Shown one piece after another: positions 7,890 through 47,056 of a DNA stretch of 53,045 nt. How positions within the stretch are numbered: the first letter of the stretch is position 1; each line of letters begins with the position of its first letter. The notes under the pieces are model-generated. The model was not told the origin of the DNA, did not search any database, and worked only from the letters and a program-made list of their open reading frames with translations. The stretch comes from Escherichia phage AV127. Where the stretch lies: the sequence record OR352957; one strand, written 5' to 3'. The translations under genes were made by a program, and so were the position numbers.

Positions 7890-8384
7890 GTGGGTAACAT
7901 TATGAAAATTGTTCAATTAGAGCCATATCCGCCTCAATTGGCTATCGTTTGTAGCGAAAAAGAGCACGAAGAGCTCCAAAAACTGATGGATTTGCCTGAT
8001 TTTGGCAACTGGAATGACCGGGAAACGCGTAATGCATCTACCTTTACATTCTCTCGCGTTAACTATCCGTACCTGTTAATCGTCGTCGAACTGTACCACC
8101 CGGACGACCTGAAGTACAACACCATTTCCCACGAAGGCATTCACGTAATGTCGTCGCTGATGAACTATGTAGGACTTAAATACGACCCAGAAAACGACGA
8201 ATGGTACGCATATCAGCATGATTTCATCGTAAATGCCATTTGTAAGGCCCATGATGAGTACCTGGAGCGCAAAAAAGCGCCAAAAACTAAGCCAAAAATC
8301 GAAACAGGTAACCATCCTGCTATACTGCCACAAGACGTTATGAACTCGCTTTTGACTGACACTACTGGGGACTTTTTTAGGTGA
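7890..8384 (+). CDS. Hypothetical protein with HEGIH (HExxH-like) motif
   Basis: ORF track; GTG at 7890 or ATG at 7902, weak SD. Confidence 0.4.
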   Translation: MGNIMKIVQLEPYPPQLAIVCSEKEHEELQKLMDLPDFGNWNDRETRNASTFTFSRVNYPYLLIVVELYHPDDLKYNTISHEGIHVMSSLMNYVGLKYDPENDEWYAYQHDFIVNAICKAHDEYLERKKAPKTKPKIETGNHPAILPQDVMNSLLTDTTGDFFR

Positions 8385-9055
8385 TTAATATTATCTTTGC
8401 AATGGGCCAAAATGGGGAATTCGGGTTATCTCCGGAGTTTATGAAGCATCAGGTTGACTCGTGTAAGACCATGGAAGAGGTTCGTGCGCTTCCTAAGTCG
8501 GGTTTGCCCTGGAAGTGTCCGTCAGATATGCTCTTTTTCAGGACTATGACTAATTCAATTGCGACAGAACCAGGCTATAATGCATATCAGCAACTACGGG
8601 GACAATTCCCGAGCGACCAGTTGCGAAACATGATAGCTGATGTAACGGTAAAAATGGTAGGGCATAGTGTATTGTTAGCCGGTCGTAACACGTATATGAC
8701 TATGAGTCTGCCTATGTCAGCCCACAGAATACTGCTGCCGGTATCTCGACAGATTATGGCTTCAGAAGGCTACAATAATCTGGGTGAGATGGCAGCAGAC
8801 CTTGAGTCCAGAGGTACTGACGTCTGGATTGTAGGCGGTGCCGAGTTGATACTTTCGGCCCTTGAAGAGCATGCAAAAGACTTACTCCGTATCGACAACA
8901 TGTTTATCAGTACAATTAAGCAATCAGGTCCAAGTGATATTTTAATGGATCGTAGCAAATTAATGATGTACATTGATAGCGACTTTACATATAATGATGA
9001 ATATGTTGATAACAAACAAGTTCTGATACAACGATACAGGAGTTTACACAAATGA
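8381..9055 (+). CDS. Dihydrofolate reductase-like protein
   Basis: MINIIFAMGQNGEFG...LPW...GRNTY...IVGGAEL matches DHFR layout; GTG start overlaps upstream stop. Confidence 0.55.
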   Translation: MINIIFAMGQNGEFGLSPEFMKHQVDSCKTMEEVRALPKSGLPWKCPSDMLFFRTMTNSIATEPGYNAYQQLRGQFPSDQLRNMIADVTVKMVGHSVLLAGRNTYMTMSLPMSAHRILLPVSRQIMASEGYNNLGEMAADLESRGTDVWIVGGAELILSALEEHAKDLLRIDNMFISTIKQSGPSDILMDRSKLMMYIDSDFTYNDEYVDNKQVLIQRYRSLHK

Positions 9056-9558
9056 ACATCATAATCGAGGGCCCGGATAATGCTGGTAAAACTACAGTTA
9101 TTGAGTTCCTTAAATCTAGTACTGGCCGCAGTATTATTCATAATACTGTTGACAAAGATCCCGAATCAGTCATGGCTAAACAGGCCAAAGAAAACGCGTT
9201 GGAAGGCGATTGTATTTATGACCGTAGCGCTGTTATATCTGAGTATATCTATTGCCTGGTTCTTCAACGTACGCCTGTCATCAATATTAATATATCACAT
9301 GTAGCAGACATGTGTGACAACGCCATCGTTATCTTTTGTATGCCACCTGTTGAAAAGGTACTGGCAACTACAAAAGAAGAGATGCCTGGTGTTGTGGAAA
9401 ATCTTGAGGCGTTATACAACCAGTATGACAACCTCATTGACGAGCTGGTTATGATGGGCAAGCAGTTTTTTATTTATGACTGGACTGCTGAAGAAAATGG
9501 CCCTGAAGCAGTTCTCGAATACATCAATGAACGTATTAATAAGGAGTGGAACAAATGA
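9052..9558 (+). CDS. P-loop deoxynucleoside monophosphate kinase (thymidylate-kinase-like fold)
   Basis: Walker A GPDNAGKTT near N-terminus, DRS motif; AGGAG SD; ATGA overlap with DHFR stop. Confidence 0.55.
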   Translation: MNIIIEGPDNAGKTTVIEFLKSSTGRSIIHNTVDKDPESVMAKQAKENALEGDCIYDRSAVISEYIYCLVLQRTPVININISHVADMCDNAIVIFCMPPVEKVLATTKEEMPGVVENLEALYNQYDNLIDELVMMGKQFFIYDWTAEENGPEAVLEYINERINKEWNK

Positions 9559-25487: not shown

Positions 25488-25910
25488 ATGATCATCGATT
25501 CTTCTGAATGCGTGTTGAGCCTGAATGGTGTTCAGCTGTCCGACTGGGCAGACGGTGCCGATGTCATTGACGTGCAATGGGTGGACCCAGCTTCCACCTA
25601 TCTTGCAGGTGCAGATGGCAATGGCATTCAGATTATGAACCCGTCCAAAGCNNCTATCAAGGTTAAGCAAAATGGTCCGGATGCCAAATGGCTTAACGAC
25701 CAGTACAACCTGCAGCGTAACAACATTCGTGGATTTGTCCCGTTTGTGCTGCAAGCCAAAGACCTGCTAAACCAGGATTTGGCATGGGGCAAAAAAGGTT
25801 ACTTTACCGATGGTTCCCCGTGGACTCGCGGTAACGGCCATAACCCGACTACCTTCGCTATTGTGTTCCACCAAGGTGGTATGCAGTTGACTGAAGGCTT
25901 TGACCAGTAA
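25488..25910 (+). CDS. Putative tail tube protein (contains 2-nt N gap at 25651-25652)
   Basis: 140 aa after sheath-like gene. Confidence 0.5.
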   Translation: MIIDSSECVLSLNGVQLSDWADGADVIDVQWVDPASTYLAGADGNGIQIMNPSKXXIKVKQNGPDAKWLNDQYNLQRNNIRGFVPFVLQAKDLLNQDLAWGKKGYFTDGSPWTRGNGHNPTTFAIVFHQGGMQLTEGFDQ

Positions 25911-29095: not shown

Positions 29096-29511
29096 TGATA
29101 TTTACCACAACNNNNNNNNNNNNNNNNNNNNNNNNNNNNNNNNNNNNNNNNNNNNNNNNNNNNNNNNNNNNTATTTACGACTTGGAACCTACCTCCGAAG
29201 GTAAGCAATCAATATCAATTTCTACCGCTGGATATACGTATAACATTGAGTTGTACTATAACACGGTAGGTCAGCTCTGGCAGGCTACAGTGACTGACAT
29301 ATCAAGTAATGCTGTACTTTGTTCCAGTTATGCTTTACAATATGGGCGTATTGCTTTTGGTAACTGGGACACGCGTATAGCGTTGCTGGTAAGTGACAAA
29401 TCCTCCAGCCGCATCGGTCCTATGACTACAGATGACATGGGAGGACGTTGCAGTGTCTACATCGTCGACAAAACAGCCTACCCGTCAGTTTGGCCGCGCG
29501 TTAAAGCTTGA
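29095..29511 (+). CDS. Hypothetical tail protein interrupted by 60-nt N gap
   Basis: ORF track; N-run 29112-29171 makes frame and length unreliable. Confidence 0.3.
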   Translation: MIFTTXXXXXXXXXXXXXXXXXXXXXIYDLEPTSEGKQSISISTAGYTYNIELYYNTVGQLWQATVTDISSNAVLCSSYALQYGRIAFGNWDTRIALLVSDKSSSRIGPMTTDDMGGRCSVYIVDKTAYPSVWPRVKA

Positions 29512-40559: not shown

Positions 40560-41542
40560 TTATACGGCCATTTGGAGTTTGATGTTTGGCATTGGTTTGT
40601 ACTTCTCAACCATTGGCGCAACATCGGTAGGAGTGAAGTCAAATACTGACACGTCATAAATCGCGTTAATGTCAGGACGACCTTCAAAGTTAGTGTCCAG
40701 TGTAGTATCAGAATTGCTTACGATACGTTGCAGGAAAATCTTTGCCGCATCGATATGATTCTGATAGATGTGATAGTCACCCAACGTAACAGTCATATCA
40801 CCTACCCCAGTACCCAGCTCAGCAGCAATGGTAATCTGCAGCATTTGATGCAACAGAATATCGTGAGGCAGACCCAGAATAACATCCGCGCTACGCATGT
40901 GGAACATCAGCTCTAATTCATTACGGTTGTTAATGAACAGCTGAAAACCATGGTAACAAGGCGGAAGGGCCATGGCGTCCATCTCTTGTGGGTTCCACGC
41001 CGTAATGTACGCCCTGCGGTCAGTAGGCTTAACCTTCAGCGTTTCAATAACATCTTTAAGCTGGTTAGTAAGAACACCATTCTTATAGAAAGGCTTAATC
41101 CATTGCACGCCGTATACCGGACCTAAGTCACGGTTGTCTGGTGTACCCCAACGTTTGTTTGCATCCTGCAGGTTACCTTCCCACCAGTTGCAGCCAAAGC
41201 CTTTGAGCGTGTCGACGTTTGAAATGCCGTTGATAAAGCAGTAAAGCTCAGCAGCAACAGCTTTGATGTTAACAGGTTTAAACACCGGCACCATCAGTTT
41301 GTTGTCGTTGAAAGCCAGTTTAAACGCTGTACCAAAACAACGGCGGGTNNNNNNNNNNNNNNNNNNNNNNNNNNNNNNNNNNNNNNNNNNNNNNNNNNNN
41401 NNNNNNNNNNNNNNNNNNNNNNNNNNNNNNNNNNNNNNNNNNNNNNACCAACACCTGTACGGTCTACAACATCCTCACCTTTACGCAGGATAAAAGAAAT
41501 GATGTCGCTGTAAAGAGAATCGACAGTGCTGTATGTTTTCAT
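40560..41542 (-). CDS. Thymidylate-synthase-fold pyrimidine C5-modifying enzyme, predicted dCMP-directed; interrupted by 98-nt N gap
   Basis: DRTGVG, LGPVYGVQW, DRRAYITAWNPQEMDAMALPPCYHGFQ; Asp in GLPHDILL where ThyA has Asn (GLPFNIAS). Confidence 0.65.
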
Positions 41543-42135
41543 TAAAACAGTTCCTTTTGAGCCGGGTTAACGTGTGCATCGATAATTGCCTGGATGTCAG
41601 GTGCTTTCCATCCTTCAGGCTTAACAATATCCTGACTAGACTTATGCTTGCTGTTGCTTGCATCAGGCTTAGCGCGTTCTTTCGCCATGTTAGCAGCCTG
41701 TACCGCATCCCATGCTGCGTCAAGTGGCCAGTTGTTGTTTGCACACCAGGTAATCAGGTGGATAATTAACTGGGCTAGACGGTCGCAATGAGTGTCTTCA
41801 GTATCCTTAACGTATACAATAAGGCCATCAGCATCGAAACGGTCCATAAATCCGCATGGCGTAGTTAACAGAATCGGATACTCAAATTCGTTGGTGAACC
41901 ATGCAGTCTGGTCATACAGGTATAACGTACCTGCAGCAATGTAAATTAAATCTACAATACCATCTAAGAAGCCAGCTTTGTCGCCGTCTTTCTTAGCTTG
42001 TTTAATTTCTTCCATCTCCTCAATAAGACGGTCATAGCGAAGCTTGAACTCAGGTTTACCGCCTTGACTAACAGGCTTGAGGTCAAACTTCTCATGAAAA
42101 GCGGTAACGCCTGCAGCAATTTTACTGAATCGCAT
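41542..42135 (-). CDS. MazG-like (all-alpha) nucleoside triphosphate pyrophosphohydrolase
   Basis: EEMEEIKQA...DGIVDLIYIAAG acidic helix pattern; immediately upstream of the TS-fold gene. Confidence 0.45.
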   Translation of the reverse strand: MRFSKIAAGVTAFHEKFDLKPVSQGGKPEFKLRYDRLIEEMEEIKQAKKDGDKAGFLDGIVDLIYIAAGTLYLYDQTAWFTNEFEYPILLTTPCGFMDRFDADGLIVYVKDTEDTHCDRLAQLIIHLITWCANNNWPLDAAWDAVQAANMAKERAKPDASNSKHKSSQDIVKPEGWKAPDIQAIIDAHVNPAQKELF

Positions 42136-42520
42136 TTCGTAACTCCTTACAAACAGTTTCGATAAACTTACGTTTAATTTCTGTAGACCAGATAATATGA
42201 CGAGCCTGTTCTAAAGTGTCCCAACGTTCTTTACCCACAGGAAAGGGAACAATGAAAAGGCCGGTACGGGATATGCGCTTGATAAACGGGAATTTACAGC
42301 GCATGGTTGTTTCAAACTTGATAAAGTTGGTTTGCACATCGCGTGTAAACTTGACCTTATCAAATTCATGTTCAAGAGTTTGAGCAAGGTTGCATACTTC
42401 CTGGAAAGAAGATGTGGGCAAGTAATCTTCGCGGCCGACGGTGTTCACGTAGTCGATTTGGCCCTCTAGCCGAAGTATCCAAATCCTGTAATAAGCTTCA
42501 GCAACACGTTGTAGGTTCAT
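42122..42520 (-). CDS. Hypothetical protein (132 aa)
   Basis: ORF track; overlaps MazG-like start. Confidence 0.45.
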   Translation of the reverse strand: MNLQRVAEAYYRIWILRLEGQIDYVNTVGREDYLPTSSFQEVCNLAQTLEHEFDKVKFTRDVQTNFIKFETTMRCKFPFIKRISRTGLFIVPFPVGKERWDTLEQARHIIWSTEIKRKFIETVCKELRNAIQ

Positions 42521-42546: not shown

Positions 42547-42575
42547 ATTATACCACATCACTCTCTAGTGGTAAA
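42547..42575 (-). promoter_or_regulatory. Early promoter TTTACC-N17-TATAAT with ACCAC...GTGGT inverted repeat overlapping spacer and -10
   Basis: Minus strand reads TTTACCACTAGAGAGTGATGTGGTATAAT. Confidence 0.5.
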
Positions 42576-45708: not shown

Positions 45709-46587
45709 TTATTTTAAGGAAAGTTTAACGGGCTTCTCATCCTGCGGGAAGACATCAGCAGGTCGATAATCATCACAAGCTGCTAATTGCTCTTCGAGTG
45801 TTTCGAGCTCTTTCTGGTGCTTGTTACAATACCACACTTTGCCCTGAAGCGGTTTACTATAGTGGCAGGTTCTGCAGTTCCTGTCGGGCATTGCTCCTTT
45901 GTGGCATAAGTGGTGGTACGTGCACATTCCTGGCTTGCACTCCCACCAAATAGGCGATTCAGAAATCTTCGGCATATCCAAACCAGATTCCGCATATACG
46001 ACAGCCTCTGCTTTGCTCAGTTGTATGTCGCTTTCCAGTAAGTCAATCTCGACCACTTCAAAATACATCTCATCGGTGTTCTTGTTAATTGCAATATACA
46101 CAGCTTGATTCAGCTTAAGCTTCCGCATGTATACCTGCATTTGAGCATAGTGCACCGGCTTACTGGCTTTAACAGACTTGAGCTTGATTAGCTCTTTAAA
46201 CGACTTATCACCATGCGTTTTGAATTCAGCAAGTGCCCAAACGCCTTTGTATTTGATTACACAGTCACAAGACCCAGAGAAGATGTCATTGAAGTCGTGT
46301 ATGCGCCACTGCTTACCTGTTTTAGGGTTGACGTCCAGCACTTCATCACATACGGAACGAAGCCACTTCACAATTCTGCTTTCTTCAAGGTTACCACGTT
46401 CAAACAGACGAAGTTGCTTAGCGGTAAACTTCTCCTTGAACGACCAATGCAGAACGTGCCAAAGATAGCGATAGCAGTTGTGTCCTATCTGCGATGCTCC
46501 AAGATGCCCGCGTCGTTCTTCTCTTTCGTGGGCTTCGACTATCTTGACATCAATACGTTTCTGCAGGTCGTCAAACGGACTGGGCAT
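45709..46587 (-). CDS. RecB-family (Cas4-like) PD-(D/E)XK nuclease with 4-Cys cluster
   Basis: Start ATG 46587 with GAGGAG SD; D...LAEFK motif; one N-terminal and three C-terminal Cys (CKPGMCTYHHLC). Confidence 0.45.
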   Translation of the reverse strand: MPSPFDDLQKRIDVKIVEAHEREERRGHLGASQIGHNCYRYLWHVLHWSFKEKFTAKQLRLFERGNLEESRIVKWLRSVCDEVLDVNPKTGKQWRIHDFNDIFSGSCDCVIKYKGVWALAEFKTHGDKSFKELIKLKSVKASKPVHYAQMQVYMRKLKLNQAVYIAINKNTDEMYFEVVEIDLLESDIQLSKAEAVVYAESGLDMPKISESPIWWECKPGMCTYHHLCHKGAMPDRNCRTCHYSKPLQGKVWYCNKHQKELETLEEQLAACDDYRPADVFPQDEKPVKLSLK

Positions 46588-47056
46588 CGTTAAACTCCTC
46601 AATGCTGAATTCATCGTATACAATATTATGTGCCCACAAATGAGCGACGGCATTTGCCATGCTATCCTTCCATTTGGATTGTGAAGCTGTATGTGCCAAT
46701 GCAACTACACGTACCAGGTTAAGGTTGGCTATCAGCATGTTAGCACAATGTTCGCACGGCGGGTAGGTTATGTAGATGGTAACCGGGCCTAACGAAGGAG
46801 TGTCTAGCTCTCTCCTTATATTAGCTAAGGTGTTTATCTCGCTATGAATAGTTAGAGCGTTCTTGAGGCTATTAGGCACTATTCTTATAGAGTCTAGCTG
46901 CGTAGGTAAGCCGTTATATCCAGTGGAAATAATACGCTTGTTCTGGTCTACAAGAACGCTACCGACCTGGCGTTTCGGGTCATTCGACCAGCTTGCAACT
47001 TCACAAGCTATGCGCATAAACCGCCTGTCCCACTTGTCCATCTTCTTCTTTTGCAT
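46571..47056 (-). CDS. dCMP deaminase (cytidine/deoxycytidylate deaminase family)
   Basis: Zinc-binding motifs HSE and PCEHC. Confidence 0.7.
   Translation of the reverse strand: MQKKKMDKWDRRFMRIACEVASWSNDPKRQVGSVLVDQNKRIISTGYNGLPTQLDSIRIVPNSLKNALTIHSEINTLANIRRELDTPSLGPVTIYITYPPCEHCANMLIANLNLVRVVALAHTASQSKWKDSMANAVAHLWAHNIVYDEFSIEEFNDAQSV

Follow-up and report, generated by a model that had tools for sequence, protein, structure and literature searches.

The closest described counterparts of the locus considered here belong to two 5-methylcytosine (5mC) phages, Xp12, which infects Xanthomonas, and PaMx74, which infects Pseudomonas. Both encode, in this order, a PRA-PH-family hydrolase, a thymidylate synthase (TS) homologue with Asp in the column of Asn177 of Escherichia coli ThyA, a deaminase and a dihydrofolate reductase (DHFR). 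The same four enzyme types are encoded by Escherichia phage AV127, a myovirus with an enterobacterial host, which was analyzed as a single stretch of 53,045 nucleotides (record OR352957; hereafter, the window) that shows ~97% nucleotide identity to Rosemountvirus phages of Salmonella and Escherichia, such as BP63 and SB2. Judging from sequence comparisons, the gene annotated as a TS in this phage group most likely encodes a folate-dependent C5-methyltransferase acting on deoxycytidine monophosphate (dCMP), that is, a 5-methyl-dCMP synthase. That the enzyme is cytosine-specific appears highly probable; to the full proposal, namely that 5mC takes the place of cytosine in the virion DNA, we assign a probability of about 0.6. 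The AV127 genes would then represent a lineage, apparently an independent one and not annotated as such before, within a known type of system, the Xp12-type phage dCMP methylase pathway.

The TS homologue and its active site

The TS-fold gene, predicted to encode the 5-methyl-dCMP synthase, occupies positions 40560..41542 of the window (minus strand) and contains a run of 98 N (41349..41446). The sequence-only reading of this DNA had taken the run to hide sequence, which proved to be wrong: the run is a pure insertion relative to SB2 and BP63, and in a BLAST comparison its flanks abut in BP63, such that zero bases are missing and filling the gap is moot. Once the run is removed, the two pieces of the frame (32 and 262 residues) join in an 885-nt gene for a complete protein of 294 residues that is colinear with BP63 gp55 and with its SB2 counterpart. 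In these two phages, the 885-nt gene is labeled "thymidylate synthase" and is located between the "nucleotide pyrophosphohydrolase" and DNA polymerase genes. The new junction, DRTGVG-TRRCFG, corresponds to DRTGTG-TLSIFG of ThyA (DRTGTGTLSIFG). The lengths of the N runs in the window are arbitrary relative to BP63 (2 N at 25652-25653 in place of 11 nt, 60 N at 29112-29171 in place of 36 nt, and 98 N at 41349-41446 in place of 0 nt) and hence mark scaffold gaps rather than masked features. Labeling oddities were observed among the related public records: a record titled "Listeria phage 220426122051" shares 96.8% identity with the enterobacterial AV127, and Escherichia phage CF2 is filed as Tequatrovirus and flagged UNVERIFIED; both look mislabeled.

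The joined protein matches the PF00303 (Thymidylat_synt) profile over residues 11-294 (E 2.5e-62; 210.9 bits against a cutoff of 24.3) and contains all the ThyA-like blocks recognized in the sequence-only reading (DRTGVG, LGPVYGVQW, DRRAYITAWN and MALPPC) along with the GLPHDILL motif. The full-length profile match and the presence of C146, R21, R126, R127 and R166 place the protein in the TS/dCMP hydroxymethylase superfamily. Canonical ThyA is the best sequence match (E 1e-40 to ThyA structures in the PDB) and belongs to the same length class. The two share the residues of the catalytic, phosphate-binding and folate sites (R21, E58, W80, W83, Y94, R126, R127, L143, C146, R166, S167, D169, H207 and Y209) as well as the C-terminal carboxylate segment, including the terminal Ala-Val.

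The residues surrounding the pyrimidine tell a different story. The protein was aligned by HMMER with Mycobacterium tuberculosis ThyA and in three MAFFT runs, with E. coli ThyA, the Xp12 and PaMx74 enzymes and T4 gp42 included (residues 143-209 are numbered here as in E. coli ThyA, and codons such as that of Cys163 as in the AV127 protein). In every alignment, with no gaps nearby, Asp195 (codon GAT, 40862-40860, minus strand) falls in the Asn177 column, so that the earlier assignment of an Asp to the pyrimidine-specificity position of ThyA holds when ThyA, T4 gp42 and phage dCMP methylases are compared directly. Four substitutions set the pyrimidine pocket of the AV127 enzyme apart from that of ThyA: the GLPFN motif is changed to GLPHD (F176H and N177D; the codon of His194 is at 40865-40863, minus strand), and PCHA to PCYH (H147Y and A148H; the minus-strand codons of Cys163, Tyr164 and His165 are at 40958-40956, 40955-40953 and 40952-40950, respectively). 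The Cys-proximal PPCYH motif noted earlier is present, but it results from the latter two substitutions and not from an insertion. Positions 147, 148, 176 and 177 all contact or neighbor the O4/N3 edge of the pyrimidine. In ThyA, Asn177 forms hydrogen bonds with O4 and N3-H of uracil and excludes cytosine.

These substitutions are not idiosyncratic to AV127. A residue table was compiled for 120 homologues, namely 31 protein clusters of the AV127 clade, which are 48-99% identical and come from phage-sized contigs (45-54 kb) where these are complete, and 89 canonical ThyA. Tyr147, His148 and His176 are present in all 31 clade clusters, as are L143 and D169, and D177 is found in 29 of the 31. In the canonical enzymes, by contrast, His147, Phe176 and Asn177 are invariant (89/89), with position 148 variable, so the AV127 enzyme lacks both Asn177 and the His147-Phe176 pair of a canonical ThyA. 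Given that the signature is conserved throughout the clade and absent from the 89 canonical enzymes, the substitution cannot be ascribed to chance. Curated equivalog models give a mixed picture: the AV127 protein passes the TIGR03284 cutoff but scores below those of all the NF00249x models and PRK01827, in one case with 187 bits where 327 are required. The two members with Asn177, P0013 and P0020 (locus L013 584-1462), are nested within the clade; they additionally carry K127 and E144, whereas Y147, H148 and H176 are unchanged. At least P0013 is preceded by a gene for a 184-residue protein at the position of the pyrophosphatase of its relatives, and the contigs of both are only 1-1.5 kb long. 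Asn177 in these proteins may be a reversion toward the use of deoxyuridine monophosphate (dUMP).

In an exhaustive HMMER search over 1.8 billion representatives, the whole AV127 clade collapses into a single 50% cluster. Among the 149 top representatives compared, the Y-H/H-D pocket combination is unique to this clade, and the combination of D177, L143 and D169 is enriched in the closest lineages beyond it (37-44% identity; 37/149 representatives). The closest outside representative (44% identity, D177) is encoded in the same module, which consists of deaminase, helicase, PRA-PH, TS and PolA genes. The presence of D177 and the conserved synteny in such distant relatives suggest that D177 is old in this phage lineage.

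Published diagnostics of substrate and product

The meaning of these residues is taken from the literature. The N177D substitution confers a preference for dCMP (Lee et al., NAR 2026, PMC13326640) and switches engineered TS to this substrate (Lee et al., PMC13326640; Yang et al., eLife 2021), and positions 177 and 147 are the best discriminators between TS homologues from phage contigs with modified cytosine and those from contigs without it (Yang et al., eLife 2021). An acidic residue at position 143 (L143D/E, as in T4 gp42 and MilA) accompanies hydroxymethyl products, and D169N marks the flavin-dependent 5-hydroxy-dCMP synthases of phages RB69 and DLP3 (Lee et al., PMC13326640). Of seven metagenomic TS homologues that were tested after the residue in the N177 column had marked them as probable 5-methyl-dCMP producers, five yielded 5-methyl-deoxycytidine (5-methyl-dC) in vivo, and so did the enzyme of Xp12. 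Genes for dCMP deaminases on cytosine-modified contigs co-localize with those for TS homologues, PRA-PH and DNA_pol_A; most of these TS homologues carry dCMP-preference residues, and the deaminases turn 5-methyl-dC nucleotides into thymidine nucleotides (10.1101/2024.12.05.627091). By the published rules, the combination of D177, L143 and D169 in the AV127 enzyme points to dCMP as the substrate and to a methyl product. The proposal in the sequence-only reading, that Asp in place of Asn entails a dCMP substrate and modification of cytosine at C5, thus gains support from the published diagnostics and from the clade-wide signature.

RB69 gp48 and DLP3 gp80, the flavin-dependent enzymes, likewise belong to the TS homologues, carry N177D and use dCMP as the substrate, but their diagnostic residues, D169N and L143E, are absent from the AV127 enzyme, and no arabinosyl-transfer genes were found in this phage. 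The identification of the AV127 protein as a 5-hydroxy-dCMP synthase was rejected because D169 is kept in 31/31 clade clusters.

Comparison with the Xp12 and PaMx74 systems

The similarity to the 5mC phages extends beyond the TS homologue. The "hydrolases" of Xp12 and PaMx74 are PRA-PH proteins (E ~1e-15), and the AV127 pyrophosphatase is homologous to that of Xp12 (37% identity over 92 residues, E 2e-9), with the gene located directly upstream of the TS homologue in both phages. The AV127 deaminase is 34-35% identical to the deaminases of Xp12 and PaMx74. The TS homologues share the fold, Asp in the N177 column (GLPHD in AV127 and GLPYD in the two other phages), D169 and a non-acidic residue 143, and as in Xp12 and PaMx74, no second TS is present in AV127. 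Hence the features of a 5-methyl-dCMP synthase system are found together in AV127: D177, a non-acidic residue 143 combined with D169, and the PRA-PH, deaminase and DHFR genes with no dUMP-specific TS. From this combination of fold, residues and gene set we infer the substrates and the product of the enzyme and the composition of AV127 DNA.

The two kinds of systems also differ in several respects. The AV127 enzyme keeps the full ThyA-like C-terminus, unlike those of Xp12 and PaMx74. The deaminase and DHFR genes, which are adjacent in Xp12 and PaMx74, are dispersed in AV127, the former ~5 kb away from the TS homologue and the latter in another operon. For the dedicated deoxynucleoside monophosphate (dNMP) kinase of AV127, tblastn gave no match in Xp12 or within the initial 50 kb of PaMx74. 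Xp12 encodes a protein resembling HhH-GPD base-excision glycosylases (L006 46973-47455; PF00730, E 5e-7) immediately upstream of the PRA-PH hydrolase, and a counterpart was not noticed at the corresponding position of the window.

Restriction resistance of related phages

Published restriction data, on which the case for modified DNA in relatives of AV127 rests, are available for two phages. The TS homologue of phage S144 (Loughboroughvirus) is 73.5% identical to that of AV127, with the same PPCYH and GLPHD motifs and the same synteny. S144 DNA is cut only by SspI and PacI, the sites of which consist of A and T only, whereas XhoI, EheI, Bsp120I, Cfr42I, NotI, MauBI and SspDI failed; the authors of that study concluded that cytosine was modified, found no responsible gene and took the TS to be an ordinary one. 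The homologue in fHy-Eco03 is 57.7% identical and carries the same signature; DNA of this phage was cut by one of 10 enzymes, ScaI, which its authors attributed to an "unknown modification." Together with the enzyme set common to AV127, Xp12 and PaMx74, the resistance of S144 and fHy-Eco03 DNA further backs the earlier suggestion that cytosine is the modified base.

The action of more than 200 enzymes on reference phage DNAs has been tabulated (Flodman et al. 2020). In this compilation, the 5mC DNA of Xp12 blocks NcoI, NotI, SphI, AflII, Sau3AI, SmaI, XhoI, NarI/KasI/SfoI, PspOMI and SacII but is partially cut by ScaI, whereas the DNA of T4gt, which contains 5-hydroxymethylcytosine (5hmC), is not cut by ScaI. 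Because ScaI cuts the DNA of fHy-Eco03 and, in part, that of Xp12 but not T4gt DNA, the fHy-Eco03 pattern fits 5mC better than 5hmC. No restriction or modification data were found in publications on the Rosemountvirus phages swi3, vB_SenM-1, SE13, PA13076 and LPSEYT, and a full-text literature search yielded no paper that ties the modification in this phage group to its TS homologue.

The composition of the window shows a selective depletion of restriction sites. Under a maximal-order Markov model, GATC is strongly depleted over the whole window (30 observed against 152.6 expected), GATATC is absent (0 against 13.5; z -3.7) and GACNNNGTC is rare (2 against 11.8; z -2.9); CCGG, GCGC, CGCG and CCWGG are not depleted. 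The enzymes that recognize the depleted sites still cut C5-modified DNA: MboI and Tth111I/PflFI cut Xp12 DNA, and EcoRV cuts T4gt DNA. This pattern would fit a phage that avoids only those sites that its modification cannot protect. Avoidance of GATC is, in any case, common in enteric phages.

Evidence against 5mC and alternative explanations

Several observations weigh against 5mC as the final base or against a close parallel with Xp12. The AV127 TS homologue shares only 28% identity with its counterparts in Xp12 and PaMx74, compared with 33-38% to canonical ThyA; it passes the curated cutoff of the TIGR03284 thymidylate synthase equivalog of NCBIfam (172 bits against 108.35); and it does not fall in the same clade as Xp12 and PaMx74 in a neighbor-joining tree, a rough one built from BLOSUM distances with no support values, in which the AV127 clade groups with canonical ThyA. 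The pocket is different as well, with Y147, H148 and H176 in AV127 against P147, Thr or Ala at 148 and Y176 in Xp12 and PaMx74, and with three polar side chains, all of them rings, close to C5/N4, the AV127 pocket might allow a different reaction. The rule for position 143 is a correlation rather than a demonstrated mechanism, and the Xp12 residue at this position is alignment-dependent (N, Q or L by run). On the side of the restriction data, ScaI digestion is complete for fHy-Eco03 DNA and partial for Xp12 DNA; such data do not distinguish rigorously between 5mC and other modifications of cytosine or guanine; and they come from two neighboring lineages, with none from Rosemountvirus proper. 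Finally, the host recorded for phage CF2, whose TS homologue is 98.6% identical to that of AV127, is E. coli K-12 MG1655, a strain positive for McrBC, McrA and Mrr. McrBC and McrA attack 5mC and 5hmC DNA, but the activity of McrBC on Xp12 DNA was no more than marginal in vitro, and for this reason we give the McrBC argument reduced weight.

The best surviving alternative, although an unlikely one, is a dCMP hydroxymethylase similar to T4 gp42, in which case the DNA would carry 5hmC, possibly decorated by an unrecognized enzyme. T4 gp42 resembles the AV127 enzyme in the Asp at the specificity position and the probable dCMP substrate, and in T4, likewise, the gene belongs to a phage dNTP-synthesis set that includes a pyrophosphatase of the dCTPase type along with a dNMP kinase. 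The resistance of S144 DNA is compatible with both 5mC and 5hmC, the polar residues Y147, H148 and H176 might hold a water molecule in place, and many of the phage genes are uncharacterized. However, the identity to T4 gp42 is only 21%, and L143 of AV127 is hydrophobic where T4 gp42 has Asp, such that the combination of Asp/Glu143 and Asp177, seen in gp42-type enzymes, with an acidic 143 also in MilA, does not occur in the AV127 protein; furthermore, the C-terminal tail that is missing from T4 gp42 in the alignment is kept. As in the sequence-only reading, no glycosyltransferase was recognized, either among the genes scanned or in the annotations of BP63, S144 and fHy-Eco03, and no glucosyltransferases like those accompanying T4 gp42 were found. 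The ScaI digestion of fHy-Eco03, but not of T4gt, DNA argues in the same direction. With a probably cytosine-specific enzyme as the sole TS-family protein and no dUMP-specific TS, the retention of a DHFR, which is of use only where dihydrofolate is formed, is easier to explain by reductive transfer of a methyl group than by hydroxymethyl transfer. Thus, of the two bases between which the sequence-only reading did not choose, 5-methylcytosine is favored by L143, D169, the C-terminal tail, the DHFR accompanying the only TS and the ScaI result, and 5-hydroxymethylcytosine is less so.

The pocket that is unique to the clade raises a further prospect, quite unlikely in our estimate, of a departure from Xp12 chemistry, either through a different group at C5 or a 5mC further modified by one of the many conserved proteins without an assigned function, or through a phage that makes all of its thymidine by deamination of 5-methyl-dC and possesses a counter-measure against McrBC and McrA. 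The latter is suggested by the near-identical CF2 having been recorded as grown on MG1655. More broadly, the enzyme might act on dCMP but lead to another final base, by forming a new C5 adduct in the Cys-Tyr-His/His-Asp pocket or because one of the uncharacterized proteins processes 5mC on the DNA. This we consider very unlikely. The uniqueness of the pocket signature among the 149 representatives, the record of CF2 on a host with McrBC and McrA, and the more than a dozen conserved genes of the window that have no assigned function are compatible with this scenario; opposing it, all the folate-binding and hydride-transfer residues are canonical, D169 excludes the known flavin hydroxylase type, 5mC already explains the restriction pattern, and no TET/JBP, glycosyltransferase, methyltransferase, kinase-transferase or radical-SAM domain was detected among the ~20 uncharacterized window proteins scanned. 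A BAH or "methyltransferase" suggestion made for S144 ORF63 and AEV23 ORF76 was not reproduced for the 301-residue window protein, a guessed counterpart only, in which Pfam detects no domain.

The weakest alternative, an ordinary TS in the textbook pathway to deoxythymidine triphosphate (conversion of dUMP to dTMP) with some other cause for the modification in the relatives, is highly improbable: although the closest sequences are canonical ThyA, the TIGR03284 cutoff is passed, two clade members carry Asn177, and dCMP deaminase, DHFR and thymidylate kinase form a textbook set, as the S144 authors read them, Asn177, His147 and Phe176 are invariant in the canonical enzymes, N177D turns engineered TS to dCMP, D177 is held across the 48-99% identity range of the clade, and no further candidate for a modification gene came to light, even though the DNA of relatives resists cutting at C-containing sites.

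Gene neighborhood and accessory enzymes

The TS homologue is the third gene of what is probably a single transcription unit on the minus strand. A sigma-70-like promoter with an extended -10 (TG) at 42547..42575, detected by a consensus scan (10/12 matches) and annotated at the same place in BP63, is preceded by a terminator-like hairpin (42630-42603) and probably starts a unit that comprises a gene for a 132-residue protein, the pyrophosphatase, the TS homologue and the polymerase genes. The first three genes are linked by overlapping stop and start codons. The 132-residue protein (42122..42520; phrog_36727, E 3e-92) is conserved, with its gene at the syntenic position in S144 and fHy-Eco03. 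It matches no Pfam or NCBIfam profile and could be a further component of the pathway or an anti-restriction factor. Its gene overlaps the start of the pyrophosphatase gene by 14 nt.

The pyrophosphatase (41542..42135; 197 residues; PRA-PH, E 1.9e-7; phrog_671) belongs to the all-alpha nucleoside triphosphate pyrophosphatases of the PRA-PH/MazG superfamily, as indicated by the profile match, the helical-bundle fold, which is closest to that of dimeric dUTPases, and the conserved acidic metal-binding motifs. Its stop codon overlaps the start codon of the TS homologue (TAATG). An insertion of ~45 residues (~72-116, partly with lower predicted local distance difference test scores) splits the PRA-PH helices. 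The putative role of this enzyme is the hydrolysis of deoxycytidine triphosphate (dCTP), as well as deoxyuridine triphosphate (dUTP), to dCMP and dUMP. In the GenBank entry of fHy-Eco03 (locus L009 7014-8930), the homologues of the 132-residue protein, the pyrophosphatase and the TS are marked as "virion associated" by liquid chromatography-tandem mass spectrometry; for enzymes of nucleotide metabolism this is unexpected and may reflect carry-over from the lysate.

The remaining enzymes of the set are encoded elsewhere in the window. The zinc-dependent deaminase of the dCMP deaminase family (46571..47056, minus strand; PF00383, E 3.7e-21; PF14437) contains the intact motifs HSE (HxE) and PCEHC (PCxxC). 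Among solved structures, its best match is 7fh4, the bifunctional dCMP/dCTP deaminase of a chlorovirus. The AV127 deaminase is predicted to convert 5-methyl-dC nucleotides to thymidine nucleotides, dCMP to dUMP, or both. On the plus strand, a DHFR-like protein of 224 residues (8381..9055; PF00186, 29.7 bits against a cutoff of 25; phrog_316, E 3.7e-26; DHFR structure 1zdr, E 1.3e-4) would recycle the dihydrofolate formed in reductive methyl transfer; the Pfam match covers no more than residues 94-188, pointing to a long insertion. Overlapping this gene by 4 nt is that for a P-loop dNMP kinase of the thymidylate kinase fold (9052..9558), a candidate for the phosphorylation of 5-methyl-dCMP. Pfam and PHROG matches thus uphold the earlier calls of a MazG-like pyrophosphatase, a DHFR-like protein and a dCMP deaminase. 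The window contains no second TS-family gene and no ThyX motif.

Taken together, these genes suggest the following pathway toward 5mC-containing DNA. The co-translated pyrophosphatase would convert dCTP (and dUTP) to the monophosphate, feeding the methylase and at the same time keeping plain dCTP from the phage polymerase. The TS homologue would then produce 5-methyl-dCMP and dihydrofolate from dCMP and methylene-tetrahydrofolate, with tetrahydrofolate regenerated by the DHFR-like protein. The phage dNMP kinase and the host nucleoside diphosphate kinase would raise 5-methyl-dCMP to the triphosphate, which the phage family A polymerase would incorporate, yielding virion DNA with 5mC in place of cytosine. 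The deaminase could channel some of the 5-methyl-dC nucleotides into thymidine nucleotides, and this route would explain why the phage has no uracil-specific TS.

Implications

Replacement of cytosine by 5mC is a known phage strategy but was previously unrecognized in this widely used group of Salmonella and E. coli phages. Rosemountvirus and Loughboroughvirus are repeatedly isolated as candidates for biocontrol or therapy, and BP63 is a component of a Salmonella product listed as generally recognized as safe. In all 61 related public phage records, the gene is labeled plainly as "thymidylate synthase" or is unnamed. If the proposed pathway operates in these phages, it would supply the missing cause of the "unknown DNA modification" in S144 and fHy-Eco03. 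The phages would then be predicted to evade most type II restriction systems and to provoke 5mC-dependent type IV enzymes, and caution would be called for in cloning, restriction mapping, nanopore basecalling and bisulfite-type assays of their DNA. The group could also become a source of dCMP methylases and 5mC-selective deaminases. An easily grown phage of E. coli and Salmonella would thus join the few known systems that replace cytosine with 5mC, with an enzyme of a ThyA-like rather than an Xp12-like lineage.

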